A stretch of 64,000 bases of DNA from Escherichia phage vB_EcoM_FJ1. The stretch lies in the sequence record MZ170040.1. The stretch is one strand, 5' to 3'. The notes beneath the pieces are model-generated. The model was not told where the DNA came from. It did no database searches and worked only from the letters and a program-made list of their open reading frames with translations. Both the position numbers and the translations under genes were made by a program. Positions 42,064-61,915 of this stretch are shown piece after piece; position 1 is the stretch's first letter, and each line of letters opens with the position of its first letter.

Positions 42064-42090
42064 GTTATTCTCCTCTTAACTGATAGAAAA

Positions 42091-42120: not shown

Positions 42121-42122
42121 AG

Positions 42123-42443: not shown

Positions 42444-42667
42444 ATACTGGCTTCTTTGAGTTTCGTTTTAGCAATAGTTAACTGATCGAGGCTTTCGGCG
42501 TAATTCTTCGCGAGTTCATCATCTTCACAGCTATCAAATGCTTCCCAGAATTCATCATATAAAGCATCAAAGATAAGCCCTAAACGAACTTCAGCATCTT
42601 TGATAGCATTCACTTTACTGATTTTATCGTCAGTATGTGGTTTATAACCTTTAATGTCTTCAATCAT
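42401..42667 (-). CDS. hypothetical helical protein (T4 vs.4/Acb2 position)
   Basis: 88-aa ORF in the block after regB; identity by position only. Confidence 0.35.
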
Positions 42668-42881
42668 ATTTTACTTCCTCACCTGTTCCCAAATCATATT
42701 CAACTAAACGAATAGGTTCATGAATGCCATATCCTTGAACAGAAATTTCTGTCGTAGGATAAATTCCATTAATATCACCCATGTTCCATGCTTCGTTAAA
42801 TTGCTGTTCGCCTGAATTACTAAACCACTCGGCGAAAGCATTTAGCACATCTTCAGAACCTTCAATAATTATCTTTGCCAT
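42660..42881 (-). CDS. hypothetical acidic protein
   Basis: 73-aa ORF. Confidence 0.4.
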   Translation of the reverse strand: MAKIIIEGSEDVLNAFAEWFSNSGEQQFNEAWNMGDINGIYPTTEISVQGYGIHEPIRLVEYDLGTGEEVKYD

Positions 42882-43243
42882 TACAAACTCTCGGTGAAGG
42901 TACGAGCGATAACGTCGCGCTGCTGTTCCGGAGTCAGAGAGTTAAAGCGAACTGCATAACCGGATACACGGATGGTCAGCTGCGGATATTTTTCCGGATG
43001 CTTAACTGCATCTTCCAGAGTTTCACGACGCAGAACGTTAACGTTCAGGTGTTGACCACCTTCAATTTTAACTGTAGGCTGTTGCTCAATTTCAATTTCA
43101 CGGGCATGCAAACCGTAGAAAATTTCTGGGTCTACAAAAGAGTCCTCTTTAAAGGTTTTAGAGACAATAATTCGTGCTTGAATACCATCTTCAAAATAAA
43201 TAGTACCTTTATGTGTGCCTTCAAGAATTTGATATGCTTTCAT
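42881..43243 (-). CDS. autonomous glycyl-radical cofactor (GrcA/YfiD-like)
   Basis: 120 aa; C-terminal [25 protein letters not shown] glycyl-radical signature. Confidence 0.7.
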
Positions 43244-43250
43244 ATAAACC

Positions 43251-43580
43251 TCAATTAGAAAATAAATTTATCCAAGATTGTTCTTTGATTAAAAATGGCT
43301 CAGAATCATATGCCATTAAACTCTGTGTGATTAGTCCTTTAAAAGGCCCATCAATAAATTCCATGGTAAAATATGGAATTTTATTCATTAGCCGTGCATT
43401 AGGAGCAGTACACAAAACTCTGCATCCTTTGAATACGCCTTTTTGTAATTTGTATTGCTTAGGATAAAATTCGCTCAAGACGTTGTTATTTGCCAAAATT
43501 TCAAAATGATTCACCAATTTATTTTTAATAGTTTTTGGCGAAAAATAAAGATATTCGAAAAGCTGAGTGTCTGTCATCAT
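43251..43580 (-). CDS. hypothetical protein
   Basis: 109-aa ORF. Confidence 0.4.
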
Positions 43581-44164
43581 TGCATTCCGATTACGAAAAA
43601 CTGTGGACGAGTAATACCATCAATGCAACATTTAATATTACAGCAGCAGTGTACAGTGTCAATATGGACACTATAAATCTTATCCATATCAGGAGATTTG
43701 ACAGGCTCATCAATTATATACAAAATTCGCGAAAGCGATAAACCTCTGAACTTGCTTCCTTTATTACCAATAAAACTGCGCACAGAATCAGTAAATAAAC
43801 GAAAACGTATATCATCATTAGAATAACGCGAAAATTCCTTTTTAATGTTATTTGCAGAAATTTTAGCGTAAGCTGAAGTATTAGAAAGAACAATAACTGT
43901 TCCGCCATCATACAACCAATTAGCAGCAAAGTTAGTCACAGCAATTGATTTACCAGATTGACGTCCACCATCTAGTCGAAGTGTGCAATACTGTTTGAGT
44001 AAGTCTTCAAATGGTGGGATATAATCGTTTTTACAAATTTCTTCTACTCTAGCATCAGAATGGTGTGTAAAAGCATTCATCAGGGATAGATAAGGACCAG
44101 TTAAAAATGTTCTCATTTTGTTATCTCTAAATTTGGGCCATTCCGTGGCGCGTGAATTGTCCAT
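43577..44164 (-). CDS. small P-loop protein
   Basis: 195 aa; Walker A GGRQSGKS and Walker-B-like ILYIIDEP. Confidence 0.45.
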   Translation of the reverse strand: MDNSRATEWPKFRDNKMRTFLTGPYLSLMNAFTHHSDARVEEICKNDYIPPFEDLLKQYCTLRLDGGRQSGKSIAVTNFAANWLYDGGTVIVLSNTSAYAKISANNIKKEFSRYSNDDIRFRLFTDSVRSFIGNKGSKFRGLSLSRILYIIDEPVKSPDMDKIYSVHIDTVHCCCNIKCCIDGITRPQFFVIGMQ

Positions 44165-44269
44165 TTCTGTATTTACCCATTACCGCGCTTGGGCTCGACC
44201 TTATTACAGGTTGGCGGGAATCCCTCACAGAATCATGAGGTCCAGCTTGTTCCCATATTTCTTATTTGC

Positions 44270-44743
44270 TTATTTGAATGATTTAACGTACTGAATAGAA
44301 CCCTTACTATTCACAAAGGCAATTTTACCATTTTTATTATACATGGTAGCAGTACGCTGATAACCATAGGTTTGTTTACCAGATTGATAACCAACTAATG
44401 CAAAATTATCTTCACCCATTTTATTCTGTTTAGCGCGAATGCGTTCATGACCATGTGCCATAAGAACCTTAGCATCACCAGTTGCAATGGATCGACGAGT
44501 TTTTTCATCTTCAACTGCATTAACAAAGTCGTCAAATGAATCAAATTTAGCATGAGATTTATTATACAATTTTCCATCTACTGCATAATTATATCCCTGT
44601 ACATCCATCTCAACTTCTGTACCATCATCCAATACAGCAGTAATTTTTTGACCTTTTTTAAATTTCAAAAGATCAGTAAAAGATTCAGCAATAATTTGAG
44701 AATTAATAGCTGCTTCAGTGATAAATTCTTGATATGTTTTCAT
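44270..44743 (-). CDS. internal-protein-like capsid protein with N-terminal capsid targeting sequence
   Basis: 157 aa beginning MKTYQEFITEA, matching the T4 CTS consensus MKTYQEFIAE; sits next to denV where T4 has ipII/ipIII. Confidence 0.6.
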   Translation of the reverse strand: MKTYQEFITEAAINSQIIAESFTDLLKFKKGQKITAVLDDGTEVEMDVQGYNYAVDGKLYNKSHAKFDSFDDFVNAVEDEKTRRSIATGDAKVLMAHGHERIRAKQNKMGEDNFALVGYQSGKQTYGYQRTATMYNKNGKIAFVNSKGSIQYVKSFK

Positions 44744-44752
44744 GGGTTTCCT

Positions 44753-45169
44753 TTAAATGTAAATATTTTTGCCGTAATACTTGTACCAGTGTGGCTTCAT
44801 TAAAATTTTTTCATCAAGTCGTTGTTGACTCAATTTAATAGCTGATTTGCATGGATTATAATCATTTTTCCATTCTATTGGAATATCGCTGATGTCAGGA
44901 ACTTCAGTATCTTTTATACTGAACCCGCGTTTTAAGCATTCCGTTATAATGTCTAATTGACGCTTTCGCAAAAATTCTAACTTATCGTAAAAGAACGTAA
45001 CATGGCCAGAACCTAAAATAAACTCGGAAGATATTTTAAAATCTTTAACGCGCTTACCGTTTGCCACATGCTTACGAACTATACCAAAAACACGCGGCAA
45101 TTCACGGTATTCTGCGATTAAATGTTGATCAGCAAGTTCAGATACTAAAGTCAAATTAATACGAGTCAT
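44753..45169 (-). CDS. denV: endonuclease V (pyrimidine-dimer DNA glycosylase)
   Basis: 138 aa; [17 protein letters not shown]...WYKYYG matches T4 DenV as recalled. Confidence 0.9.
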
Positions 45170-45194
45170 TTTATCCCTCCAAGTAACTGTGAAT

Positions 45195-45224
45195 ATACTA
45201 TCACAATTCTAGGAGAAAGTAAAC
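45195..45224 (-). promoter_or_regulatory. early promoter upstream of denV
   Basis: GTTTAC at 45224-45219, TAGTAT 18 nt downstream. Confidence 0.45.
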
Positions 45225-45228
45225 AACT

Positions 45229-46197
<969 letters not shown>

Positions 46198-46216
<19 letters not shown>

Positions 46217-46686
46217 TCGGTGATAAAATTATTTAAATTTTGAGTATATTTCTTTTCATCAAAAATCTTTTGCTGCCTACGTAAACGCCATGGCATTTCA
46301 ATGAACGTGTACCATATCCCAGATAATATTGCTGCTGTAAAAATATTAACAAGTATGGTTAAAATAATCCAATCTCCCGTTCTGTCTACTGGACTTTCTC
46401 CAAAGAAGCAAAATACAAATGATGTCACAGGAAAACTAATAATATACCACAGAATCATAATCTTATCTGTGAACCAATCAGTGTTCGTTAATTTAGCGCG
46501 ACCATTATGAATACACACGAATTTATCATCTGTTGCAGTAGATGGCTTAACTGGTTGATATCCCATTCTAAACTCCCTAATCAGCAAATTTTTCATATCT
46601 TCGGAACAGCCATTCCAGTCAACTCTATCAACTGAAATGCCATCATCCCCATCATCTAAATCATACCAGCGAGTTTTTAAAATCAT
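46198..46686 (-). CDS. membrane protein (paralog family, member 1)
   Basis: 162 aa with TM segments; C-terminal ...NNFITECRKLK. Confidence 0.45.
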
Positions 46687-47045
46687 TTGATTTTCCTACA
46701 ATCATTCACGAATTCTTTCATTGATTCATTTTCAATATAAGACATGTAGTTATTATATTCTTTTAATTGTATTTTGTAATCCTTTTTTCTTTGCCAATTT
46801 ATTTTAAAATTATCATAATGAAAATATAAAATAATACCAAAGAATGAAAATAATGAAATTGCTATAGTATAATGAAGTTCACTCCAAACTTCTGTTATAT
46901 TTACTGTGCCGTCGATGTTTAAAATAAGACAGTCAATTAACAATCCAAAAAGACTACCCGCAAGAGCTGCAGCCAACGCCACAGCAAAAATTAAAAATGA
47001 CTCAGAAAACGAATATTTGACTTTATTTAGTTTTGGCTTTTGCAT
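46683..47045 (-). CDS. membrane protein (member 2)
   Basis: 120 aa with TM segments; C-terminal ...KEFVNDCRKIK. Confidence 0.45.
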   Translation of the reverse strand: MQKPKLNKVKYSFSESFLIFAVALAAALAGSLFGLLIDCLILNIDGTVNITEVWSELHYTIAISLFSFFGIILYFHYDNFKINWQRKKDYKIQLKEYNNYMSYIENESMKEFVNDCRKIK

Positions 47046-47440
47046 CGTGATTCCTTAACAAATTTCATAATTTCATCAAATTCATACGCGGCAAGTTTAA
47101 GCTGATGTTCCTTTTTAATCTTTTTACACTGTGCTTTCCAATCACGTACACGTTTACGATAATGTCTTCCTTGATACCAATATCCTATCCAATTTACAGG
47201 TACTAATAAAAGTGGAACTATTAATGGAAGAATTAGCATTAACACAAGTATTTCGCCAGAATCAATATCAGTCATAACATCTAAAACACCTCCAATAATC
47301 AATAGAATTACAAATGATATGAGTATAACAGGACCTATTAACACATCAGTAGAAATTATCTGACGCTTTAATTCATACTTTAAGGGTTTACTTGGAAGAT
47401 ACATTGATGGCTTTGACATATTCTCTACATTCCTTAACAA
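47027..47440 (-). CDS. membrane protein (member 3)
   Basis: 137 aa with TM segments; C-terminal ...MKFVKESRCKSQN. Confidence 0.45.
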   Translation of the reverse strand: MLRNVENMSKPSMYLPSKPLKYELKRQIISTDVLIGPVILISFVILLIIGGVLDVMTDIDSGEILVLMLILPLIVPLLLVPVNWIGYWYQGRHYRKRVRDWKAQCKKIKKEHQLKLAAYEFDEIMKFVKESRCKSQN

Positions 47441-47996
47441 ATTTTTCTAATAATAAATCGCTTTCAAAATTGGGATTTTCTACGAATTTATCAAAAAGAT
47501 CATCAACAATATTCAAGATATTTCTTTTACTAAGAATACGTTTATTTTCATGTTTCGTTTCAGAATCAACTATAAGAGTAAAGAAATATTTCTTTCCCTG
47601 AAATTTTACCGTAGTATCAATATAGAATAAATTTGACTTTTGTAAATTACGTTTAAACCATGCGTCACTTAAACTATAAACACCGAGATAATCAAAATCG
47701 TCGTTTAAATAACATACTGTCCATTCAGGAGAAATGAAATCAGTAAATTCAACATCAAAATCACACGTCAATGAATGAATTGATTCAATACTGTTAATAA
47801 GTATTCCAGGACGTATTAAAGACTTTTTACCTCTGGAAAATCTTCCAGAAAGACTTTCATCAGTTTCATATGAAGAACCCCAATAATAATTACGTCCTTC
47901 TGCCATACGTTTAAGAGCATTTAGTAATTGGTCTGGAACATCAACTTGTCGTTGGAATTCTTCAAACATTGAATTGAAATCACTTTGCATTTTCAT
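47388..47996 (-). CDS. hypothetical protein (member 4, soluble)
   Basis: 202 aa; C-terminal ...EKFVKECREYVKAINVSSK. Confidence 0.45.
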   Translation of the reverse strand: MKMQSDFNSMFEEFQRQVDVPDQLLNALKRMAEGRNYYWGSSYETDESLSGRFSRGKKSLIRPGILINSIESIHSLTCDFDVEFTDFISPEWTVCYLNDDFDYLGVYSLSDAWFKRNLQKSNLFYIDTTVKFQGKKYFFTLIVDSETKHENKRILSKRNILNIVDDLFDKFVENPNFESDLLLEKFVKECREYVKAINVSSK

Positions 47997-48016
47997 TCCT
48001 ATTTACTCCAAGTAAT

Positions 48017-48032
48017 AGGGGCCGAAGCCCCT
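48017..48032 (-). terminator. GC-stem UUCG-loop hairpin
   Basis: AGGGGC-CGAA-GCCCCT. Confidence 0.55.
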
Positions 48033-48037
48033 TATCA

Positions 48038-48631
48038 TTATTTCAGAGAATTAATGTATTCCTGAACATCGGCAGAGGTAGTTTCAACCCCAGAAATATT
48101 ACCATTAAAGGTTTCAACTCGAGCAAGAGTATCTTCAATATCAACCTTAGTCAGTGCTGCAATTTCAACTACATCATCAGCAGTACTAATTCCAAGGGCA
48201 TTTGCTGCACGAGTTTCACGGATATATTCCAATTTAACCGCAAGTTCTTGGCGTGCATCATCTAACTCAACTACTTTCTTGGCGATTTCAATTCGCATTT
48301 CAGCATAACCATCAGCTTTAGTAGTCAACTGCTCAGCTGTTCGACGATATAGCAAGCCGAGTTTAGCATGCATTGTTACATCTTGACCTTCGGAAAGAAG
48401 CTTGCGAATTTCACGCTCTTTTGATTCGGCCTGCTTATTCTTTTCGACAATAAGTTCACGAATACGCTTTTCTTCATTAATAGATTTAACAGAAGCAGTT
48501 TTTAGGTCTTTAATTTTATCAAGCAGTTTTGCTGCTGCGGCAGTATACTGTTCTTCAACAGATAGATTTTTAGCCATAGCAGAACCAAGTTTAGTGCGAA
48601 TAAACTCAACAATTTTCTTCAGTGTGTTCAT
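48038..48631 (-). CDS. hypothetical coiled-coil protein
   Basis: 197 aa, strongly helical and charged. Confidence 0.5.
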
Positions 48632-48706
48632 AGTAGTTCCTTAGGTTGATTAAGATTTAAAATCCATGAGAGTATTATACCCTGTTATTTGAGGGATGTA
48701 AACATT

Positions 48707-49105
48707 TTATTTCATTTTTGCGAGGCAGATTTCATTGGCTTCCCATTGAGCTTGCTTAATAATAGCTTTGGATACAGGAACCTTTTGACCATAAGTTTTT
48801 GACGTTGAGAGAACAATATATTTGTTTGCCTCATTATGCCAACCCCATGATTTTTCGCCATGAGTACCTTTAATTACGGCCGACACTTCAACAGAGCATC
48901 CATCAGAACTAATCTTGGTGTCTACAATCCATTCATTTCTCTCGACAGCTTCATTTTCCGATCTCATTTTTTCTTCATACACGGCGGCCCAATCAGTTTT
49001 TGTCAAGCTTAAACTAAGAGCTTTCTCTAATTCTTTGGCAGCCTTTTGTTGTTCGGGTGTTAATGAATTATATAACTCTCGCATTTCTTTATCTTCAATA
49101 TTCAT
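48707..49105 (-). CDS. hypothetical protein
   Basis: 132-aa ORF. Confidence 0.45.
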   Translation of the reverse strand: MNIEDKEMRELYNSLTPEQQKAAKELEKALSLSLTKTDWAAVYEEKMRSENEAVERNEWIVDTKISSDGCSVEVSAVIKGTHGEKSWGWHNEANKYIVLSTSKTYGQKVPVSKAIIKQAQWEANEICLAKMK

Positions 49106-49162
49106 TATGTTCTCCTCAAGTTATAGGCTCATAATATCTCAATCATGAGCCTGTGTACACAA

Positions 49163-49438
49163 TTATTTCATATTATTGAAATATTCTTCTGCGATTTCGT
49201 CGTTATCATGGTAAACTTTAGAAGACAGTTTAACATAACTTTCAGCAGTGAACATGTTAATCACAACCTTTACAGTATACCACTGACCATCTTCATTACC
49301 CATTACTGCGTAAGTTTCAAACATCGGATGGTCAGGACCGATAACTTTAATATCATTCACTGTACGACCAAAATCTTCTGAAACACATTTCATAAAGAAG
49401 TTGAACAGTTCACCGTAATTATCCATTTCATTCTCCAA
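49163..49438 (-). CDS. hypothetical acidic protein
   Basis: 91-aa ORF directly downstream of an early promoter. Confidence 0.45.
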   Translation of the reverse strand: MENEMDNYGELFNFFMKCVSEDFGRTVNDIKVIGPDHPMFETYAVMGNEDGQWYTVKVVINMFTAESYVKLSSKVYHDNDEIAEEYFNNMK

Positions 49439-49469
49439 GTTGTTTTCTGTATCAGTAGTTGATAGTTGT

Positions 49470-49499
49470 ATAGTACCATGGAAGAACAGAGATGTAAAC
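49470..49499 (-). promoter_or_regulatory. early promoter (GTTTAC family)
   Basis: GTTTAC at 49499-49494, TACTAT at 49475-49470. Confidence 0.6.
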
Positions 49500-49637
49500 A
49501 GTTTTGTGAAAAAATTTTTAAAAAGTTTTAGGGAATTCTAGGGCAGGGAGGGGAAATCAAAGGATAGGATAATATATTATAAAGGGTATAAACTAAATGA
49601 TGCCTAGAGAGGCCCGGAAAGGCCTAGATACCAAAAA

Positions 49638-49659
49638 GCCCCAACCTTTTGGTCGGGGC
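49638..49659 (-). terminator. hairpin terminator (copy 1 of a duplicated 31-bp element)
   Basis: GCCCCAACC-TTTT-GGTCGGGGC preceded by AAAAA; near-identical copy at 50194-50215. Confidence 0.55.
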
Positions 49660-49667
49660 TAAGAATG

Positions 49668-49937
49668 TTATTTGATTTGTTTAGCAGACCAAATGCGATC
49701 TTTAATAATTTTTTGGATGTCTTCAACATACTCTAGGTCATGAGCATGTGGATTATCTTTGAAACTATGAGCTCGCGCAAGTTTCTGGCCTTCGGTCTTA
49801 ATTATCAAAAGTTCTTTAAGAATTGCTTCATACCTAGAGATAATTCCTTTAGCAATATTTTTTTTCTTGTGCTGCTTTAGGGTCAGCCTTAGGAGCAGGT
49901 TTACCTGAAGCCTTTGCAAAAGCAGCTCCAGTAGCAA
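49668..49937 (-). CDS. hypothetical protein (uncertain)
   Basis: 89-aa ORF overlapping the upstream gene by 89 nt. Confidence 0.3.
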   Translation of the reverse strand: MLLELLLQRLQVNLLLRLTLKQHKKKNIAKGIISRYEAILKELLIIKTEGQKLARAHSFKDNPHAHDLEYVEDIQKIIKDRIWSAKQIK

Positions 49938-50142
49938 CTAAACTTTTCCAGGCCATACTAACTGCATTTCCCGTAAATCCTTCCGCTTTCATGTCGCGTG
50001 CGAACTGGAATCGCGATTCATCGGAAGCATCTTTATAGGAATATTTACCCGCGGCAATGGCTGCTTTTGCGACAGCTTGAATTTCGGTGCTAGATGCTTC
50101 ATTTAACACCGCTTCATTTAAAAATTGAGCATATGATTTCAT
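49849..50142 (-). CDS. internal-protein-like protein with CTS-like N-terminus
   Basis: 97 aa beginning MKSYAQFLNEA (CTS-like M-K-[ST]-[YF]-x-[EQ]-F-[IL]-x-E-A), Ala/Lys-rich; late promoter TATAAATA 37 nt upstream. Confidence 0.55.
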   Translation of the reverse strand: MKSYAQFLNEAVLNEASSTEIQAVAKAAIAAGKYSYKDASDESRFQFARDMKAEGFTGNAVSMAWKSLVATGAAFAKASGKPAPKADPKAAQEKKYC

Positions 50143-50178
50143 CTTATTTCCTGTTTTAATTCGTGGTTTTAATATACT

Positions 50179-50186
50179 TATTTATA
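50179..50186 (-). promoter_or_regulatory. late promoter (TATAAATA)
   Basis: Minus-strand TATAAATA at 50186-50179. Confidence 0.5.
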
Positions 50187-50193
50187 CTAAAAA

Positions 50194-50215
50194 GCCCCAA
50201 CCTTTCGGTCGGGGC
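50194..50215 (-). terminator. hairpin terminator (copy 2)
   Basis: GCCCCAACC-TTTC-GGTCGGGGC; ends the stable-RNA/tRNA-Arg transcript region. Confidence 0.55.
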
Positions 50216-50530
50216 TAAGCCTTGCGGCAACCTTGTCGGGGTTCCACCTGCTAAGGCAAGTGTTTGTACGAAACGCCGGGACTTGAACCCGGTTATTAAG
50301 TAGTTGACGCTACTCAATATTTTTAAAAGGCCATATCTCGACCATATCCGAACGTTCCGTCAAAAACGCTACTCGGCTTACGGCAAAGATATTTCCTCGA
50401 ATCGATAATTCGGTGCGCCGTTTCTGCTGTGATGTAAGAGGGCATCAATAAACGCAAAGATTATTAACGCAATTCCTTACTCAGGGAGCATCAGTCCGAC
50501 GACTTACCGGTAGCGACCCGGTTTCTTGTC
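50216..50530 (-). ncRNA. stable small RNA region downstream of tRNA-Arg (T4 rnaC/rnaD-like), including a tRNA-like element
   Basis: About 315 nt with no ORF between tRNA-Arg and a terminator; minus strand 50359-50266 has a 7-bp acceptor-like stem (CGGAACG/CGTTTCG) and T-arm CCGGG-TTCAAGT-CCCGG but no canonical anticodon arm. Confidence 0.4.
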
Positions 50531-50607
<77 letters not shown>

Positions 50608-50610
50608 TAG

Positions 50611-51276
50611 TTAAAATTTCATTTTTCGACCTTTAAACCATCCTTCTGGAATTGGGTCAGTTTTCTTAATACGTTTAGAAACTTTTTCATCTAATGAATG
50701 AATCCACATCATACCAAATTGGGAATTCTTTTCACCTTTTTGGTGATTATTTTTAGCATGAATTTCTTTCATTTTATTAATAGTTTCAAGAGTATGATGC
50801 TTATTTAAAAATCGGCTATTATTTAAAAATTTTTCTTTGTATTCAGGAGTTGACCACAAACGGTTAAATACATTTGAACCATTTTTACGATATTTTTCTT
50901 GAAGTAAAATATCATTTTTAAAACGTGACTTAAACGATTTAGCTCCTTTTAAACTAGCGTCTTTCTTCTGATTTAGCATCTCAGGAATATTTATATGATC
51001 CCATCCACCTTCACCGCCAAGTTTTAAATTATACACATCAGGTCTATTTAAAAACTCTTCTGTGACAATATTTTTCTCGGCTTCAAGCATAGATTCTTTA
51101 TCATCAAAATACTCTAATATTTCTTTAGAAAAATTTTCTATGCCATACTTATCTTGGGCTCTTTTTAATAATTTACCAGAACCCATATATCCATCATCTA
51201 AATTTTCGGTAGAATGCACACCAATATAAATTTTATTATTAATTTTATTTGTTATTTTATAAAGATAAAAATGCAT
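50611..51276 (-). CDS. segB: GIY-YIG homing endonuclease SegB-like
   Basis: ATG at 51276 gives 222 aa beginning MHFYLYKITNKINNKIYIGV (GIY...YIG); lies inside the tRNA cluster as T4 segB does; the longer track ORF would overlap tRNA-Tyr. Confidence 0.7.
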   Translation of the reverse strand: MHFYLYKITNKINNKIYIGVHSTENLDDGYMGSGKLLKRAQDKYGIENFSKEILEYFDDKESMLEAEKNIVTEEFLNRPDVYNLKLGGEGGWDHINIPEMLNQKKDASLKGAKSFKSRFKNDILLQEKYRKNGSNVFNRLWSTPEYKEKFLNNSRFLNKHHTLETINKMKEIHAKNNHQKGEKNSQFGMMWIHSLDEKVSKRIKKTDPIPEGWFKGRKMKF

Positions 51277-51322
51277 ATCAGTCCCTAATAAAGAACTGAG
51301 CGTCTCACGACGAGTCATAAAT

Positions 51323-51409
51323 TGGTGGGGAGTGGTGGAGTCGAACCACCCGAGTCGCAATGACAATGGATTTACAGTCCACACCGCTACCTCTACGGGA
51401 TAACTCCCC
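51323..51409 (-). tRNA. type-II tRNA, anticodon GUA (tRNA-Tyr)
   Basis: Manual fold: acceptor GGGGAGT/ACTCCCC, anticodon loop CTGTAAA, long variable arm, T-arm GGTGG-TTCGACT-CCACC, CCA encoded; resembles E. coli tRNA-Tyr (GACUGUAAAUC, GUCAU). Confidence 0.65.
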
Positions 51410-51418
51410 TAATTAATT

Positions 51419-51495
51419 TGGTGACCCAGACCAGATTTGAACTGGTAACCTTTCCCTTATGAGGGGACTGCTGCTAACCATTGAGCTACAGGGCC
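51419..51495 (-). tRNA. tRNA with CAU anticodon (Ile lysidine-type, or Met)
   Basis: Acceptor GGCCCTG/CTGGGTC with one U-U mismatch, anticodon loop CTCATAA, T-loop TTCAAAT, CCA encoded; same position as T4 tRNA-Ile. Confidence 0.6.
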
Positions 51496-51496
51496 T

Positions 51497-51572
51497 TGGT
51501 GCTGATTGACGGAATCGAACCGCCGACCTTCTCATTACAAGTGAGTTGCTCTACCTACTGAGCTAAATCAGC
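51497..51572 (-). tRNA. tRNA-Thr (UGU)
   Basis: GCTGATTTAGCTCAGTAGGTAGAGC...CTTGTAAT...GGTTCGATTCC...AATCAGCACCA; canonical cloverleaf. Confidence 0.85.
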
Positions 51573-51574
51573 AA

Positions 51575-51661
51575 CGGAGGCGATAGGATTTGAACCTATG
51601 AGTCGCCGGAGCGACTGCCGGTTTTCAAGACCGGTGCATTAAACCACTCTGCCACGCCTCC
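51575..51661 (-). tRNA. tRNA-Ser (UGA), type II
   Basis: GGAGGCGTGGCAGAGTGGTTTAATGCACCGGTCTTGAAAACCGG... with long variable arm; matches T4 tRNA-Ser as recalled. Confidence 0.9.
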
Positions 51662-51663
51662 AG

Positions 51664-51737
51664 TCTCCGTGGCAGGATTTGAACCTACGACATTCTGCTC
51701 CCAAAGCAGACGCTCTACCAAACTGAGCTACACGGAG
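51664..51737 (-). tRNA. tRNA-Pro (UGG)
   Basis: Acceptor CTCCGTG/CACGGAG, anticodon loop TTTGGGA, T-loop TTCAAAT. Confidence 0.85.
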
Positions 51738-51747
51738 TAAATTAAAT

Positions 51748-51821
<74 letters not shown>

Positions 51822-51826
51822 AAATT

Positions 51827-51913
51827 TGGTGCGAGAAGTGGGACTCGAACCCACATGGAAATCATTCCGCAGCATTTTAAGTGCTGTGCCTTTACCAATT
51901 TGACCATTCTCGC
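51827..51913 (-). tRNA. tRNA-Leu (UAA), type II
   Basis: GCGAGAATGGTCAAATTGGTAAAGGCACAGCACTTAAAATGCTGC... with long variable arm; matches T4 tRNA-Leu as recalled. Confidence 0.9.
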
Positions 51914-51914
51914 G

Positions 51915-51987
51915 CTGGGAATAAAGGACTCGAACCTTTGCATCCTGGAATCAAAATCCAGTGCCTTACCAACTTGGCTAATTCCCA
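51915..51987 (-). tRNA. tRNA-Gln (UUG)
   Basis: Acceptor TGGGAAT/ATTCCCA, anticodon loop TTTGATT, T-loop TTCGAGT; abuts tRNA-Leu. Confidence 0.85.
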
Positions 51988-52084
51988 ATTATTAACAAAG
52001 GCTCTCTAACAAGAACCCTTGATGATAGAGGGTATTAATCAGTGCGGTATGAGTTAATAATAACAAATAATTCTTAAAGCATAT

Positions 52085-52378
52085 TTACCATTTATGATGA
52101 TACATACTTACGATGCATTCAAGACCCAAAGGATTCTTGAAAATATCATATTCAAGAGGACCTTTTTCCGTTTCAATAAAGAAATCAAAATTTACTGTAT
52201 TAAATTTACGGTCTTCCTTCACTAATTTAACCTGAGAAGATGAACGGTCAATGTAAACCTTTTCAACTTCAAAACATGTTAAAATGCCATAATCATCAAT
52301 CAAGGCTTTAGCCGCGTCTTGATCATATTTATATCCATTTTCAATGGACGATACTTTCGCATAAAGAATCATTATCAA
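52085..52378 (-). CDS. hypothetical protein
   Basis: 97-aa ORF. Confidence 0.45.
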   Translation of the reverse strand: MIMILYAKVSSIENGYKYDQDAAKALIDDYGILTCFEVEKVYIDRSSSQVKLVKEDRKFNTVNFDFFIETEKGPLEYDIFKNPLGLECIVSMYHHKW

Positions 52379-52755
52379 CCTTCATCAACAATAGTATGAG
52401 TGTGGGCATTTACAATTTGCCACCAATCAAAGCGATTAGAACCATACATTGGTTTGTTCTCATTTTCTTTGATAATGTCACGGAGTTCATCTTCGGTAGC
52501 GGCTTTCGCGATTAAATCAGCATATCCACCGCGAGGATAATAATTATCACCTGCAAAAAGTAAAAAGTTCGGTTTAATATTATTGAACTCTTCAAGAGTA
52601 ATAACTTTTCCTGTCGGTTGAACAATCTCTACATATTTATATCCTAATTTTTGAGCAGCATCTACTGCTTCAAGCAAAGTATCATGAGCCCATCCAATTT
52701 GACAACCTGGCTTTTCAGATGGATTAGCCTGATAATCCGCGTACACTTTATACAT
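52375..52755 (-). CDS. hypothetical protein
   Basis: ATG at 52755 (MYKVYADYQANP...), 126 aa. Confidence 0.45.
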   Translation of the reverse strand: MYKVYADYQANPSEKPGCQIGWAHDTLLEAVDAAQKLGYKYVEIVQPTGKVITLEEFNNIKPNFLLFAGDNYYPRGGYADLIAKAATEDELRDIIKENENKPMYGSNRFDWWQIVNAHTHTIVDEG

Positions 52756-52756
52756 T

Positions 52757-52942
52757 CTATTCACCTTTAGAAATTTTATCCATAACGATAGCAATTAAAC
52801 CAATTAAAAATGCTACTACAAGTGAAAACACATTTTCTGCTGTAGTCAATAATCCGCATATAAATCCAACAAACATTGAAAAACTAAAAGCAGAAGCAGA
52901 AATTGCAATAGCAACATTTCGAATTAATTCACAACGTTTCAT
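52757..52942 (-). CDS. small membrane protein
   Basis: 61 aa, two hydrophobic segments; directly downstream of an early promoter. Confidence 0.45.
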   Translation of the reverse strand: MKRCELIRNVAIAISASAFSFSMFVGFICGLLTTAENVFSLVVAFLIGLIAIVMDKISKGE

Positions 52943-52970
52943 TTTATTCTCCTCGGTAGTTGATAGGGTA

Positions 52971-53000
52971 ATAGTATCACAACTAAAACCCTATGTAAAC
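52971..53000 (-). promoter_or_regulatory. early promoter (GTTTAC family)
   Basis: GTTTAC at 53000-52995, TACTAT at 52976-52971. Confidence 0.55.
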
Positions 53001-53018
53001 AACTTTGTGAAATATTTA

Positions 53019-53306
53019 TTACAAAAGATTTTTAGCAATAATCTTGAGATGTGCCGCAGAAATGTGTTTAGCTTTAAACAACGCAGTTTCTTCAGCAGGA
53101 GAGATAACGATTGTAGCACCATCCTTTTTAGCAGACCACCCATCACCTAGGTAAACAGTACCTTTGATTTCTTCGCCATCAACCAGACTAATCATTGGTT
53201 TACCTTCTCGTCCTTTATTTGCTTTAATAACTTCAGAAGTAAGAGTAGCCTCGGTAATGGTAGAAACCGGGGTAGTTGTAGAAGTAAATTCTTTAAATGT
53301 TTTCAT
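53019..53306 (-). CDS. internal protein I-like (CTS-bearing) at the ipI locus
   Basis: 95 aa beginning MKTFKEF (CTS-like), Lys/Ala-rich; sits between the tRNA region and 57B where T4 has ipI; same length as T4 IPI. Confidence 0.6.
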   Translation of the reverse strand: MKTFKEFTSTTTPVSTITEATLTSEVIKANKGREGKPMISLVDGEEIKGTVYLGDGWSAKKDGATIVISPAEETALFKAKHISAAHLKIIAKNLL

Positions 53307-53336
53307 TTTATTTTCCTAATTAATTTTGATGAGGTA

Positions 53337-53366
53337 ATAGTATCACTACCTCATCAACGTGTAAAC
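53337..53366 (-). promoter_or_regulatory. early promoter (GTTTAC family)
   Basis: GTTTAC at 53366-53361, TACTAT at 53342-53337. Confidence 0.55.
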
Positions 53367-53378
53367 AACTTTGTGAAA

Positions 53379-54075
<697 letters not shown>

Positions 54076-54076
<1 letters not shown>

Positions 54077-54789
54077 TATAGTACCTTTAGTGTATTTTTA
54101 ATTTTAGAAAAAAGTTCTTCAAGAGAACCATCGTTTGTAATTACTAAATCGCCATCACGAATTGGCAATCCAGCTTCTGTAATATGAGTATCATTGGATT
54201 TTTGACCAGGACGAACTACATGAATTACTGTAGCACCCATCGCCCTAGCCGCATCCATTTCATGATCTTGACGAGTATCAGGAACGATATAATAATCATA
54301 ACCTGAGTTAAATTTATCAAGATAATCTAAAGCAAATAATTTTACCCAATACATGCGGTCGAAGTTATTAACAATCAAATCCGTACCTAGGGCTTGCATC
54401 AGACGACGGACTGACCATTGATCTTCAATATTATTTATAACGTCAGCAATCTTGTTAAATGCTACGAAATTAACTGCGTCATCAAAAACAAACACACCCT
54501 TAATTGGGCTTTTACCGTTAAGATAGCAAAATGCTTGTTCCATAATCGTGATTACTTCTGATTTAGTCAGATTTAAATTAGTCTCACGATCATAGTCAAT
54601 TCCTTCAAACTCTTTACGAGTTAAGCAAGGATAGTCAGTGTTTTCTGCAAATACGCCCCATGCATAAGCCAATGCATCCTTAATAGGACCAGCAAGTTGG
54701 TATTTAACTGCAGAATAATTGCTCATGATAAAATCAGCAGTAGTATCTTTTCCACTACGCTTTACACCGCTTAAAAAGATTAGTTTCAT
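54076..54789 (-). CDS. 1: deoxynucleoside monophosphate kinase
   Basis: ATG at 54789 (MKLIFLSGVKRSGKDTTADF, P-loop) with AGGAGA upstream; 237 aa. Confidence 0.85.
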
Positions 54790-54838
54790 GTGTTTCTCCT
54801 CAAATTTAATTAAAATTATAACACACAAAACTGAAGCA

Positions 54839-55369
54839 TTAAACTTCTGCTATAATTTTTCCATCTTTTTCTACTTGAAAATAGGTGTAAGGAATCGTTG
54901 CAGTGCATACTAAAGCCGGGTCTGAATCTTCTGTGTAGCTAAATTCTACTTCAGATAGGTCAGAAACCCAAGGCTTATAAAAATTTATTGACATCACGAT
55001 TTCAGTTTTGCTATTATCTAAGATGTAAAGCGTAATGTACTCAGGACCTGTTTTTTGGGCAGTATTTTCACCTGTAAGATAGTTGCTCGTTCCTAGCATC
55101 CATTCATACATTCCTATCCACGACTTAAGTTCTTCATCAACTATAAATCTCACAATGAGTGGATCATACTCAAATGTAACGCCTGGACGTTGTGCTCGGC
55201 CTAGTCCAAACGGCCCAGTCACGGTATCAGTAACAGGTATTCTAATTCCTGGAATAGGAACTGACTGAGCATTTAAAGTAAAAGCAGATGTAGTATTACT
55301 ATGTGGTATTGATACTACAAAGTTAGTTGTATTTGCTTGGTTAAAAATTTGTTGTAGAGCTTGCGACAT
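54839..55369 (-). CDS. 3: tail completion/sheath stabiliser gp3
   Basis: ATG at 55369 gives 176 aa, the T4 gp3 length; position between gene 2 and gene 1. Confidence 0.75.
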   Translation of the reverse strand: MSQALQQIFNQANTTNFVVSIPHSNTTSAFTLNAQSVPIPGIRIPVTDTVTGPFGLGRAQRPGVTFEYDPLIVRFIVDEELKSWIGMYEWMLGTSNYLTGENTAQKTGPEYITLYILDNSKTEIVMSINFYKPWVSDLSEVEFSYTEDSDPALVCTATIPYTYFQVEKDGKIIAEV

Positions 55370-55475
55370 ATATTCCTCATAATGCTTTATAACTGTTGGT
55401 GGTATAATGGGTCTAAATCCCTTCCATTCAATTCCATTTAGAACAAACAACAGAAAAGAATGGAAGATAATAGAA

Positions 55476-56300
55476 TTAGATATTTGACCAGACTTTGTTT
55501 GCAGAGAAACGTTTTCCTTTTGAAACGAACTGCTGAAGTGGCATCAACACAACGTTCGCCCAGTCTTTCGGGGCGATTTCAACAAGGCTACCCATAATAT
55601 TACCAGGTATATATGCCTTAATCATTTGGTCTGCACCCCTAAATCCTTTCACTTGACTCCAATCAATTTTTAATTTCGTTTTATTAGTAATAGTAGGTGT
55701 ATTTGCATATTGCTTTAAAAGCTCTTCTAGAAACTGTTGACGAGCTTTAGGTGGAATATAGTGCAAGTTCAATCCGTACATTAAATTATGCTTACCTAAA
55801 CCAAGGTAAATTATCAAAGGAAATTTATCCCAGTAAGGAAGAGTTTCCTTGTGTTTAGCATCATAAGCAAAAGCATATATTCGTCCCGGCTGCGGGCGAA
55901 CAACTTTATGTCCTTTTACTTGCTTAATAGTTTCAGCAAACCACTTTCTGGTTTTATTATTAATTGCTGCGCCTTCATTACGAATTTTATCACGCAATGT
56001 TTGCCTGAATGAATTTATCATAAGCAGTTGTCTTTCTTGCTTATTGAGTTTATTCATTGGTTTTGATTCAAGCTTTTGAATCTTTTCAGCTGTTTTAATT
56101 CCTGAAGCATATTTTGACATTGCCGAAGTAAACGTAGAGTATTTGATTCCTCTTTCTTCAGCAAATTGCTTTCCTGTCATTCCTTTTGCTTTGGCCTTTT
56201 TGTATTCAAGACCTATCTGAATCCATTTCTTTTCGTTTAATGATTGCTTAACCTTTGGAACTTGGGGAGTGCTTTCATTAATTATTTGAAAAATAGCCAT
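55476..56300 (-). CDS. 2: DNA end protector gp2
   Basis: 274-aa ORF, same size and position as T4 gp2. Confidence 0.8.
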
Positions 56301-56752
56301 TATGCCCCCTTAAAGCCAAGAGCTCGTAATCCATCTTCTGTTAGAATTCTAAATTTTATTCCACGCTTTTCAGCTAAAGCTTGCGCTGCTTTCCATTTGT
56401 CGGTATTAACGGAATATGTATAAATTTCATTCATAAATCTTTTCTTCGCTGCAGTTGTTAGATGTGCTGGTTTAACTGGTGGTTGTGTTTCTTTTTTAGG
56501 TTTTATTTCAATAAAAAATTCTTGTCCAGAAGAATCTTTCATCCAAATATCCATGAAGTATCTACGTTTTTTCCCTTCTGCATTACAAAAATAAGGAATT
56601 ACTGCTGTTTCACTACCCCATGCAATAATTTCTGGATTTTTATCTAACCATTCAAAAAAGAATTTTTCCCAATTTGATCTATACGTAATTTTTTTAGGGT
56701 CACCTCTATATTTTGATATATTTTTAGGAACCCATTTTCCAGAATATGCCAT
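56300..56752 (-). CDS. 4: head completion protein gp4
   Basis: 150-aa ORF, same size and position as T4 gp4; start overlaps the gp2 region. Confidence 0.8.
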
Positions 56753-56763
56753 TGGATTCTCCT

Positions 56764-56771
56764 TATAAATA
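56764..56771 (+). promoter_or_regulatory. late promoter (TATAAATA) for gene 53
   Basis: Plus-strand TATAAATA 29 nt upstream of the gp53 ATG. Confidence 0.6.
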
Positions 56772-56778
56772 GATAATA

Positions 56779-56786
56779 TATTTATA
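56779..56786 (-). promoter_or_regulatory. late promoter (TATAAATA) for the 4-2-3-1-57 unit
   Basis: Minus-strand TATAAATA 27 nt upstream of the gp4 ATG, divergent from the gene 53 promoter. Confidence 0.55.
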
Positions 56787-56799
56787 AACAGGAGGGCCC

Positions 56800-57390
56800 A
56801 TGCTCTTTACATTTTTTGATCCGATTGAATATGCGGCCAAAACGGTGAATAAAAACGCGCCGACTATTCCTATGACAGATATTTTTAGAAACTATAAAGA
56901 CTATTTCAAACGTGCTCTTGCGGGATACCGCTTACGTACTTATTATATTAAAGGTTCACCACGCCCGGAAGAATTAGCAAATGCTATATATGGAAATCCG
57001 CAGTTGTATTGGGTTTTATTGATGTGTAATGATAATTATGATCCGTATTATGGATGGATTACTTCGCAAGAAGCTGCTTATCAAGCATCTATACAAAAAT
57101 ACAAAAACGTAGGTGGAGACCAAATAGTATATCATGTGAATGAGAACGGTGAAAAATTTTATAATTTAATATCATACGATGATAATCCATATGTTTGGTA
57201 TGATAAAGGCGATAAAGCTAGAAAATATCCTCAATATGAAGGAGCGCTTGCTGCGGTCGATACGTATGAAGCGGCTGTTCTTGAAAATGAAAAACTTCGT
57301 CAAATAAAAATAATAGCAAAATCAGACATCAATTCATTTATGAACGACCTTATACGTATAATGGAGAAATCTTATGGAAATGATAAGTAA
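56800..57390 (+). CDS. 53: baseplate wedge protein gp53
   Basis: 196-aa ORF, the T4 gp53 length; first plus-strand gene, followed by gene 5. Confidence 0.85.
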   Translation: MLFTFFDPIEYAAKTVNKNAPTIPMTDIFRNYKDYFKRALAGYRLRTYYIKGSPRPEELANAIYGNPQLYWVLLMCNDNYDPYYGWITSQEAAYQASIQKYKNVGGDQIVYHVNENGEKFYNLISYDDNPYVWYDKGDKARKYPQYEGALAAVDTYEAAVLENEKLRQIKIIAKSDINSFMNDLIRIMEKSYGNDK

Positions 57391-59101
57391 TAACCTTAAT
57401 TGGTTTGTTGGTGTTGTTGAAGATAGAATGGACCCATTAAAATTAGGTCGTGTTCGTGTTCGTGTGGTTGGTTTGCATCCACCTCAAAGAGCACAAGGTG
57501 ATGTAATGGGTATTCCAACTGAAAAATTACCATGGATGTCAGTTATTCAACCTATAACTTCGGCAGCTATGTCTGGAATTGGAGGTTCCGTTACTGGACC
57601 AGTAGAAGGAACTAGAGTTTATGGTCATTTTTTAGACAAATGGAAAACTAACGGAATTGTCCTTGGCACGTATGGTGGAATAGTTCGCGAAAAACCGAAT
57701 AGACTTGAAGGATTTTCTGACCCAACTGGACAGTATCCTAGACGTTTAGGAAATGATACGAACGTATTAAACCAAGGCGGAGAAGTAGGATATGATTCGT
57801 CTTCTAACATTATCCAAGATAGTAACTTAGACACCGCAATAAATCCCGATGATAGACCACTATCAGAGATTCCAACCGATGATAATCCAAATATGTCAAT
57901 GGCTGACATGCTTCGCCGTGATGAAGGATTAAGACTAAAAGTTTATTGGGATACCGAAGGATATCCTACAATTGGTATTGGTCATCTTATCATGAAGCAG
58001 CCAGTTCGTGATATGGCTCAAATTAATAAAGTTTTATCGAAACAAGTTGGTCGTGAAATTACTGGAAACCCAGGTTCTATTACAATGGAAGAAGCGACGA
58101 CTTTATTTGAACGTGATTTAGCTGATATGCAACGCGACATTAAATCGCATTCTAAAGTTGGCCCAGTTTGGCAGGCAGTTAATCGTTCTCGTCAAATGGC
58201 ATTAGAAAATATGGCATTTCAGATGGGTGTTGGCGGTGTAGCTAAATTTAACACAATGTTAACTGCTATGTTAGCCGGAGATTGGGAAAAAGCATATAAA
58301 GCTGGTCGTGATTCATTGTGGTATCAACAAACAAAAGGCCGTGCATCCCGTGTTACCATGATTATTCTTACGGGGAATTTGGAATCATATGGTGTTGAAG
58401 TGAAAACTCCAGCTAGGTCTTTATCGGCAATGGCTGTGACTGTAGCTAAATCTTCTGACCCTGCTGACCCTCCTATTCCAAATGACTCGAGAATTTTATT
58501 CAAAGAACCAGTTTCTTCATATAAAGGCGAATATCCGTATGTTCATACAATGGAAACTGAAAGCGGACATATTCAGGAATTTGATGATACCCCTGGGCAA
58601 GAACGATATAGATTAGTTCATCCAACTGGAACTTATGAAGAAGTATCACCATCAGGAAGAAGAACAAGAAAAACTGTTGATAATTTGTATGATATAACCA
58701 ACGCTGATGGTAATTTTTTGGTAGCCGGCGATAAAAAGACTAACGTCGGTGGATCAGAAATTTATTACAACATGGATAATCGTCTTCACCAAATAGATGG
58801 AAGCAATACAATATTTGTACGTGGCGATGAAACTAAGACGGTTGAAGGTAATGGAACTATCCTAGTTAAAGGTAATGTTACTATTGTAGTTGAAGGCAAT
58901 GCTGACATTACAGTTAAAGGAGATGCTACCACTTTAGTTGAAGGAAATCAAACTAACACAGTAAATGGAAACCTTTCTTGGAAAGTTGCCGGGACAGTTG
59001 ATTGGGACGTTGGTGGTGATTGGACAGAAAAAATGGCATCTATGAGTTCTATTTCATCTGGTCAATACACAATTGATGGATCGAGGATTGACATTGGCTA
59101 A
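57374..59101 (+). CDS. 5: baseplate hub/cell-puncturing protein gp5 with lysozyme domain
   Basis: 575 aa; OB-fold N-terminus, internal lysozyme domain (DMLRRDEGLRLKVYWDTEGYPTIGIGHLI, paralogous to gene e), C-terminal beta-helix VxGxxxxx repeats. Confidence 0.95.
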   Translation: MEMISNNLNWFVGVVEDRMDPLKLGRVRVRVVGLHPPQRAQGDVMGIPTEKLPWMSVIQPITSAAMSGIGGSVTGPVEGTRVYGHFLDKWKTNGIVLGTYGGIVREKPNRLEGFSDPTGQYPRRLGNDTNVLNQGGEVGYDSSSNIIQDSNLDTAINPDDRPLSEIPTDDNPNMSMADMLRRDEGLRLKVYWDTEGYPTIGIGHLIMKQPVRDMAQINKVLSKQVGREITGNPGSITMEEATTLFERDLADMQRDIKSHSKVGPVWQAVNRSRQMALENMAFQMGVGGVAKFNTMLTAMLAGDWEKAYKAGRDSLWYQQTKGRASRVTMIILTGNLESYGVEVKTPARSLSAMAVTVAKSSDPADPPIPNDSRILFKEPVSSYKGEYPYVHTMETESGHIQEFDDTPGQERYRLVHPTGTYEEVSPSGRRTRKTVDNLYDITNADGNFLVAGDKKTNVGGSEIYYNMDNRLHQIDGSNTIFVRGDETKTVEGNGTILVKGNVTIVVEGNADITVKGDATTLVEGNQTNTVNGNLSWKVAGTVDWDVGGDWTEKMASMSSISSGQYTIDGSRIDIG

Positions 59102-59630
59102 TATACTTCCAATGAGCGCTGATTTAGGAGAATCCATGGAAGGTTCTTCTATCGACGTCACCTTTACCGCTCAATTAGAAACAGGTGAAACGTTAGTATC
59201 TATAAATATAACTAGTTACGAAGAAACTCCTGGGGTTTTAGTAGAAGAAAATCGCTTATATGGAACATATGAATCTGTATTTGGTTTCGGAAATGACGCG
59301 TTGAAATATCGTTTAGGCGATGAATTTAAAACTGCTGCTTCATGGGAAGAACTTCCTACTGATTCTAATACTCAGTTGTATTTGTGGAAAGCTCCCCAAA
59401 ATCTCCAGAAGACATTCACTTACGAAGTAACATTAATATATGACTACCAAGAACAAAGTGAATCTGGAGGTTCTGGCAGTAATTCTAGGTCATCTTCTGA
59501 TACTACTGAACCGGCAGATCCTCCTGCTCCAGTAAGAAAAACTCTCGTTAAAAATTATACTAAAACTATAGTTGGAAATTGGAGTCGTTGGGCTAATAAA
59601 CTGAGAAGCTATGTGTATGAGAGGCCATAA
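59073..59630 (+). CDS. 5.1: gp5.1-like baseplate-associated protein
   Basis: 185-aa ORF overlapping the gp5 end; position as T4 5.1. Confidence 0.6.
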
Positions 59631-59924
59631 ATGTCAGGATTAAGTTATGATAAGTGTGTTACTGCTGGCCATGAAGCGTGGCCTCCAACAGTTGTGAATG
59701 CTACACAAAGTAAAGTATTCACTGGAGGAATTGCTGTTCTCGTAGCAGGCGATCCAATTACAGAACACACAGAAATTAAAAAGCCATATGAAACACATGG
59801 CGGAGTGACACAACCCAGAACTTCTAAAGTATATGTCACTGGAAAGAAAGCTGTTCAAATGGCTGATCCAATATCATGCGGTGATACTGTGGCTCAGGCA
59901 TCATCTAAAGTATTCATTAAATAG
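59631..59924 (+). CDS. 5.4: PAAR-repeat spike-tip protein gp5.4
   Basis: 97 aa, the T4 gp5.4 length; Gly/Val-rich PAAR-like repeats; between gp5 and gp6. Confidence 0.8.
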
Positions 59925-59932
59925 GATTTAAA

Positions 59933-61915
59933 ATGGCAAATACCCCTGTAAATTATCAATTAACAAGAACAGCAAATGCTATTCCCGAGATATTCGTCGG
60001 GGGTACGTTTGCTGAAATAAAACAAAACCTCATTGAATGGCTTAATGGTCAAAATGAATTTTTGGATTATGATTTTGAAGGCTCAAGATTAAACGTTCTG
60101 TGTGACCTTTTGGCTTATAATACGCTGTACATTCAACAGTTTGGTAATGCTGCTGTGTATGAAAGCTTTATGCGTACTGCTAACTTACGAAGTTCAGTTG
60201 TTCAAGCTGCACAAGATAACGGATATTTACCTACTTCAAAATCCGCTGCGCAGACCGAAATTATGTTAACATGCACAGATGCATTGAATAGAAATTACAT
60301 TACTATTCCTCGCGGTACTCGCTTTTTAGCATATGCAAAGGATACTTCTGTTAATCCTTATAACTTTGTATCTACCGAAGATGTTATTGCTATTCGTGAT
60401 AAAAATAACCAATATTTTCCGCGTTTAAAATTAGCCCAGGGGCGTATAGTAAGAACTGAAATCATTTATGATAAGTTAACACCTATTATCATTTATGATA
60501 AAAATATTGATAGAAACCAGGTTAAATTATATGTTGATGGAGCGGAATGGATTAACTGGACGAGAAAGTCAATGGTTCATGCTGGTTCAACATCAACGAT
60601 TTACTATATGCGTGAAACTATTGATGGAAACACTGAATTCTATTTTGGCGAAGGTGAAATTTCTGTTAATGCTTCTGAAGGAGCTTTGACCGCTAATTAT
60701 ATCGGAGGTCTTAAACCTACCCAGAACTCTACGATTGTTATTGAGTACATCAGTACTAACGGTGCAGATGCGAATGGCGCAGTCGGATTTTCATATGCAG
60801 ATACATTAACAAATATAACTGTCATCAATATTAATGAAAATCCAAACGACGACCCAGATTTTGTCGGAGCAGATGGCGGCGGTGATCCAGAAGATATTGA
60901 GCGTATTCGCGAATTGGGTACTATTAAACGCGAAACTCAGCAACGATGCGTAACTGCGACTGACTACGATACATTCGTTTCAGAGAGATTTGGTTCTATT
61001 ATTCAAGCTGTTCAAACTTTCACTGATTCTACTAAACCTGGGTATGCATTTATTGCTGCTAAACCTAAATCAGGACTGTATTTAACTACTGTACAACGTG
61101 AAGATATTAAAAATTATCTCAAAGACTATAATTTAGCTCCTATTACACCATCAATTATTTCTCCTAATTATCTTTTTATTAAGACTAATTTAAAAGTCAC
61201 ATATGCTTTAAATAAGCTGCAAGAATCCGAACAGTGGCTCGAAGGTCAAATAATTGATAAAATTGATCGTTATTATACCGAAGATGTAGAAATTTTTAAC
61301 TCGTCTTTCGCTAAATCTAAGATGTTGACATATGTAGATGATGCAGATCATTCTGTCATTGGTTCATCAGCGACTATTCAAATGGTTCGTGAAGTACAAA
61401 ACTTCTATAAAACGCCTGAAGCGGGTATTAAATACAATAATCAAATAAAAGATCGTTCTATGGAATCTAATACGTTTTCATTTAATTCTGGACGAAAGGT
61501 TGTAAATCCTGATACTGGTTTAGAAGAAGATGTATTATATGACGTTCGTATAGTATCAACAGACCGAGATTCTAAAGGAATTGGTAAAGTTATTATTGGT
61601 CCATTTGCTTCTGGCGATGTTACAGAAAATGAAAACATTCAGCCGTATACAGGCAATGATTTTAATAAATTAGCAAATTCTGATGGACGTGACAAATATT
61701 ATGTTATCGGTGAAATAAATTATCCGGCTGACATGATTTATTGGAATATCGCTAAAATTAATTTAACATCTGAAAAATTTGAAGTTCAGACCATTGAATT
61801 ATATTCTGACCCAACCGATGATGTTATCTTTACTCGCGATGGTTCACTGATTGTATTTGAAAATGACTTACGTCCACAATACTTAACTATCGATTTGGAG
61901 CCTATATCACAATGA
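59933..61915 (+). CDS. 6: baseplate wedge protein gp6
   Basis: 660-aa ORF, the T4 gp6 length; stop overlaps the gp7 start as ATGA. Confidence 0.9.
   Translation: MANTPVNYQLTRTANAIPEIFVGGTFAEIKQNLIEWLNGQNEFLDYDFEGSRLNVLCDLLAYNTLYIQQFGNAAVYESFMRTANLRSSVVQAAQDNGYLPTSKSAAQTEIMLTCTDALNRNYITIPRGTRFLAYAKDTSVNPYNFVSTEDVIAIRDKNNQYFPRLKLAQGRIVRTEIIYDKLTPIIIYDKNIDRNQVKLYVDGAEWINWTRKSMVHAGSTSTIYYMRETIDGNTEFYFGEGEISVNASEGALTANYIGGLKPTQNSTIVIEYISTNGADANGAVGFSYADTLTNITVININENPNDDPDFVGADGGGDPEDIERIRELGTIKRETQQRCVTATDYDTFVSERFGSIIQAVQTFTDSTKPGYAFIAAKPKSGLYLTTVQREDIKNYLKDYNLAPITPSIISPNYLFIKTNLKVTYALNKLQESEQWLEGQIIDKIDRYYTEDVEIFNSSFAKSKMLTYVDDADHSVIGSSATIQMVREVQNFYKTPEAGIKYNNQIKDRSMESNTFSFNSGRKVVNPDTGLEEDVLYDVRIVSTDRDSKGIGKVIIGPFASGDVTENENIQPYTGNDFNKLANSDGRDKYYVIGEINYPADMIYWNIAKINLTSEKFEVQTIELYSDPTDDVIFTRDGSLIVFENDLRPQYLTIDLEPISQ

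Follow-up and report, generated by a model that had tools for sequence, protein, structure and literature searches.

The ipI gene of Escherichia phage vB_EcoM_FJ1 and its product, identical in sequence to phage T4 internal protein I

The ipI Gene and Its Neighbours

The DNA analyzed here, referred to as the window, is a 64,000-nt stretch of Escherichia phage vB_EcoM_FJ1 (sequence record MZ170040.1), and all coordinates are those of this stretch. The ipI gene, which encodes the precursor of internal protein I (IPI), lies on the minus strand at 53019..53306 and consists of 95 codons, the first of them ATG, and a TAA stop. Its translation in the list of open reading frames (ORFs), MKTFKEFTSTTTPVSTITEATLTSEVIKANKGREGKPMISLVDGEEIKGTVYLGDGWSAKKDGATIVISPAEETALFKAKHISAAHLKIIAKNLL, begins with MKTFKEF; the first-pass annotation of this DNA had recorded a 95-aa ORF with this beginning at the same place, leaving its strand unstated. 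A Shine-Dalgarno sequence, AGGA (53314..53317, minus strand), was read off the sequence 7 nt 5' of the ATG. Lys (12), Thr (12), Ala (10), and Ile (9) are frequent among the 95 residues of the product; the earlier description of the protein as Lys/Ala-rich holds roughly, but Thr is as abundant as Lys, and the product is moderately Lys/Ala-rich and Thr-rich to an equal degree. On the basis of its Pfam and PHROG matches (see below), we regard the ORF as a genuine gene, a chance ORF being excluded.

On the 5' side of ipI, the same strand carries 57B (53379..53834), 57A (53834..54076), and gene 1 (54076..54828), while three small ORFs (52757..52942, 52375..52794, and 52085..52378), corresponding to trna.4, trna.3, and trna.2, follow on the 3' side, also on the same strand. 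A tRNA gene block (51323..51987) is located beyond trna.2, with segB and a tRNA-Arg gene farther on. The order trna.2-trna.3-trna.4-ipI-57B-57A-1 of T4 is matched in the window, in agreement with the earlier placement of the ORF between the tRNA block and 57B, the T4 ipI position. The 57B/trna.4 interval occupied here by ipI is one of the two Ip loci of T-even phages, and the proteins encoded on its two sides are 99.3% (57B) and 100% (trna.4) identical to those of T4.

The 57B product, encoded directly 5' of ipI, matched the Pfam family PF23474 "Anti-CBASS protein Acb1" (E=2.6e-60), while it is called "RNA ligase" in RefSeq and PHROGs, a public label that is misleading; we suggest that the annotation read Acb1 (anti-CBASS) instead. 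Because 57B matches Acb1, two anti-defence genes, 57B and ipI, would adjoin here. In the tRNA region, an additional tRNA-Tyr gene (anticodon gta; 51323..51409, minus strand), missing from the T4 annotation, was found between segB and the next tRNA gene, and the tRNA-Met(cat) gene called by ARAGORN at 51419..51495 sits where T4 has tRNA-Ile.

Copies of a 54-nt direct repeat lie on both sides of ipI, at 52960..53013 and 53326..53379; they are 80% identical, and both contain a promoter-like site, TTTACA-17-TACTAT, with TG ahead of the -10 hexamer and a hairpin between the hexamers. The upstream copy (53326..53379, minus strand) was assigned as a PeSL-type early promoter (TTTACA-17-TACTAT at 53365..53337) with an embedded stem-loop (53326..53357; -18.1 kcal/mol, z=-4.95), and no shuffled sequence folded as well as this hairpin. 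The downstream copy (52960..53013, minus strand) comprises a putative ipI terminator hairpin (-16.9 kcal/mol, z=-4.34; again, no shuffle folded as well) together with a trna.4 early promoter, which was located by a scan at 52999..52971. The upstream equivalent is annotated as early promoter PE2 plus "pot. stem-loop" in the T4 record X03016, and the downstream equivalent as PE1 plus "pot. IpI terminator." A simple terminator scan found no T-run intrinsic terminator after ipI: the stable hairpin is present there, but no T-run comes after it. The consensus of the promoter-early stem-loop (PeSL) modules described for the PST/T4 phage pair is TTTACW-N17-TAYWAT (PMC4122927); the modules flanking ipI fit this consensus and would be expected to function likewise.

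Identity of the Gene Product with T4 IPI

The product of ipI was aligned by BLASTP with the translated T4 reference gene (NC_000866.4, 73591..73878; NP_049749.1), and the two proteins are identical at 95 of 95 residues with no gaps. An exact look-up returned the same sequence as UniProt IPI1_BPT4 and GenBank AAD42585.1, present on 395 contigs. Residues 20–95 matched the Pfam family PF11634 IPI_T4 ("nuclease inhibitor from bacteriophage T4") over profile positions 1–76 of 76 with 180.1 bits (E=7.3e-54), against a curated cut-off of 25 bits, and the protein also matched phrog_4363 "internal virion protein" (E=1.8e-48). The PDB sequence search gave a single match, 2JUB chain A ("Internal protein I"), to which the same residues are identical. 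When a 451-nt locus query (52950..53400) was compared by megablast with 50,697 phage records, T4 was 98.5% identical over the full length, and the phages vB_EcoM_NBG2, ESh30, and vB_Eco_Geo were 100% identical; the feature matched is annotated "ipI: internal head protein." That an internal-protein gene lies at the ipI locus, as had been noted from the letters of the DNA, is thus borne out by the Pfam and PHROG families and by the identity with T4 IPI.

The coding sequence differs from that of T4 by a single synonymous base, GAG vs. GAA at Glu19. The remaining differences are non-coding: in the upstream module, three adjacent bases lying between hairpin and -35 hexamer are changed, the A-run between the Shine-Dalgarno sequence and the ATG is 1 nt shorter than in T4, and 2 bases differ in the downstream module. 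The first two of these non-coding differences could change the expression level of ipI.

The first 19 codons (53250..53306, minus strand) encode the propeptide, or capsid-targeting sequence, MKTFKEFTSTTTPVSTITE, which ends in I-T-E; both 2JUB and the Pfam domain start at residue 20. Codons 20–95 (53022..53249, minus strand) encode the 76-aa mature protein IPI* (76/76 identity with 2JUB chain A), for which a mass of ~8.0 kDa and a pI of ~9.0 were calculated. The motif I17-T18-E19 directly precedes Ala20, at which the solved mature protein begins (residue 1), and the ipI product has the leader pattern MKT(F/Y)xEF followed by the (L/I)-x-E protease site of T-even internal proteins. The internal proteins have propeptides of 10–19 residues, which gp21 removes (PMC9026906). 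Prohead targeting by the leader was demonstrated for IPIII and extended to IPI by similarity, the IPI propeptide being similar to that of IPIII without being identical (PMC9026906); by analogy with the IPIII experiments, the leader of the ipI product would have the same targeting role. IPI* has a compact fold of two beta sheets with N- and C-terminal helices at the flanks (PMC3012670), a fold that the protein of the window is expected to have, judging from its sequence identity with 2JUB.

On the basis of the profile score, the identity with the type member and with the solved structure, the leader and cleavage motif, and the locus, we assign the ipI product to T4 IPI. The sequence identity, the position of the processing site, the gene order, and the flanking regulatory modules were all observed in the DNA itself, and we have hardly any doubt that this gene is the ipI of a T4-like phage (Tequatrovirus) whose protein is identical to T4 internal protein I and acts as in T4; no feature of the sequence speaks against this. 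The product is already known, being an ordinary, well-studied T4 protein whose structure has been solved and whose target is known. We propose that the gene be labeled ipI (internal protein I, GmrSD inhibitor precursor).

Variability of the ipI Locus

A total of 553 phage records matched the 451-nt locus query, and at least 80% of the query was covered in 190 of them. In a tblastn search, IPI homologues were found in 291 phage records, at identities of at least 99% (74 records), 95–99% (49), 90–95% (14), 80–90% (142), and below 60% (12), the last including rare relatives at ~52% such as that of Bp7. The copy in the window is the commonest T4-type allele. The earlier statement that the locus is variable among T-even phages is supported by these counts, and PeSL modules, by which accessory genes are proposed to be shuffled in modular fashion (PMC4122927), agree with such variability.

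The first-pass annotation went further and read the gene as a divergent internal protein at a hypervariable ipI locus, with a different leader and body; on this reading, the protein might be aimed at another host defence. The variability of the locus and the existence of an 80–90% allele group and of far more distant homologues would leave room for such an allele, but all 95 residues of the protein encoded here are those of T4 IPI (100% identity), its mature part equally matches the solved IPI* at 100%, and its supposedly divergent leader is the normal leader of T4 IPI, as found in the translated T4 reference (MKTFKEFTSTTTPVSTITE in both), while the alternative beginning, MKTYQEFIAE, belongs to T4 IPII and IPIII. 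The claim that the N-terminus and body are unlike those of T4 IPI is therefore false, and the proposed alignment with T4 IPI gave the essential identity that had itself been named as the refuting result. A divergent ipI allele was rejected by the megablast, Pfam/PHROG, PDB, and BLASTP searches as well as by the exact look-up, identity being the outcome in all of them, and we give this interpretation practically no credence. A confusion of T4 IPII or IPIII with IPI may lie behind the reported divergence. The useful outcome is a negative one, in that the divergence finding on ipI can be closed.

The identity of the gene with T4 ipI does not extend evenly over the genome. The 24-kb region 40000..64000 is ~96–97% identical to its best-matching records, Tequatrovirus genomes including IME339, PhiZZ6, and slur03, and the genome of the window is that of a T4 relative distinct from T4 itself. 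Amino-acid identity to T4 is 100% for ipI and trna.4, 99.3% for 57B, 98.8% for 57A, and 95.8% for trna.2, and falls to 78% for denV and 56% for trna.3, a gene-by-gene variation that we take to be the usual T-even mosaic pattern. A sharp mosaic boundary was seen at ~52757, where the trna.3 homologue (52375..52794, minus strand), with its 56% identity, borders on trna.4 and ipI, both identical to T4. Elsewhere in the window, the homologue of T4 vs.8 (43580..44228, minus strand) aligns in two frames, residues 1–32 at 44228..44133 and residues 26–219 at 44164..43580, the longest ORF there being one of 195 aa with its ATG at 44164; this two-frame alignment hints at a frameshift, or at the use of an alternative start, compared with T4.

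Predicted Function of the IPI Protein

IPI* of T4 is an injected inhibitor of GmrSD with a mature form of 76 residues (PMC3012670), and the inhibition of the GmrSD enzyme of E. coli CT596 by T4 Ip1 is credited there to Bair et al. 2007 (PMC3012670). In a 2025 study, Ip1, Ip2, and Ip3 each blocked one distinct GmrSD variant with no cross-protection, and T4 Ip1, which was re-tested, was specific for GmrSD-CT596 (PMC12373910). The steps of packaging, cleavage, injection, and GmrSD inhibition are drawn here from the literature. In the proposed mechanism, the leader of the 95-aa precursor would direct IPI into the prohead's scaffolding core during assembly, and the prohead protease gp21 would cut after Glu19 of the I-T-E motif to yield the basic 76-residue IPI*. 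Some 360 copies (~360 per head; PMC9026906) would remain in the DNA-filled head and be ejected into the host along with the DNA. In the host, IPI* would inhibit GmrSD of E. coli CT596, a modification-dependent type IV restriction enzyme, and so keep it from cutting the glucosyl-hydroxymethylcytosine DNA of the phage. Packaging, gp21 cleavage, and injection have been established for the identical T4 protein and are presumed to apply to the IPI of the window; likewise, its inhibition of GmrSD-CT596 is carried over from T4 Ip1 through 100% sequence identity and is to be expected on that ground.

The same IPI might also serve other ends in the natural hosts of this phage, so that GmrSD-CT596 would not be its only or main target there; other enzymes of the GmrSD family, enzymes of other kinds, or the packing of DNA in the head would come into question. 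Only a few variants of the very diverse GmrSD family were tried against Ip1–3 (PMC12373910), and a basic protein that is so abundant in the head (PMC9026906) might take part in packing. We nevertheless consider a broader role unlikely, since in the reported tests each of the three proteins inhibited its cognate GmrSD only (PMC12373910); the sequence of the window holds nothing that bears on the targets of IPI*. Read as an injected inhibitor of GmrSD-CT596, the ipI product is a textbook anti-restriction protein with little discovery value.

Comparison with Other Internal Proteins

Inhibition of the GmrSD family is common to IPI, IPII, and IPIII (PMC12373910). T4 IPII and IPIII, both of which begin with MKTYQEFIAE in the translated T4 reference loci, share with IPI a short leader of the form MKT(F/Y)xEF ending in Glu and followed by an unrelated injected body. 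They differ from IPI in the length of the leader (10 vs. 19 residues), and the bodies are dissimilar. No homologue of T4 ipII or ipIII was found anywhere in the 64,000-nt window. In addition, denV (44753..45169, minus strand) is directly followed by the lysozyme gene e (45229..45723, minus strand), whereas ipII and ipIII lie between the two in T4. With ipII and ipIII missing, the phage would lack inhibitors of the ECOR21-type and ECOR17-type GmrSD enzymes, as judged from the published specificities (PMC12373910).

A search of all six frames of the window for the leader pattern MK[TS][FY].EF returned ipI and one other ORF only, which is located next to denV (44270..44743, minus strand) and encodes an IpIV-type internal protein of 157 aa with the leader MKTYQEFITE. 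Its exact sequence is that of the "internal virion protein" of RB51 and RB68 according to the exact look-up, and its 90% cluster includes the T2 "IpIV internal head protein"/DUF7412. The IpIV-type protein of T2, RB51, and RB68 thus resembles IPI in its CTS-like leader and its annotation as an internal virion or head protein, but it is 157 aa long, has an unrelated body, and is encoded at a different locus. Ip4/IpIV is unmentioned in the study that tested Ip1–3 (PMC12373910). We regard this ORF as a more interesting anti-defence candidate than ipI.

In the window, an IPI identical to that of T4 occurs together with an IpIV-type protein, in place of the IPI, IPII, and IPIII set of T4, and the changes in the promoter region and in the spacer between the Shine-Dalgarno sequence and the ATG may alter the dosage of IPI. 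It is conceivable, though we hold it to be very improbable, that the anti-GmrSD repertoire and host range of this phage differ from those of T4 for these reasons; if true, cassettes would have been shuffled between PeSL repeats here, a modest natural case of that process, with no new kind of protein. The ipI gene itself has in common with its T4 counterpart all 95 residues of the product, the 19-residue propeptide, the I-T-E motif, the 76-aa mature chain, the neighbouring genes, and the promoter/stem-loop modules on both sides.
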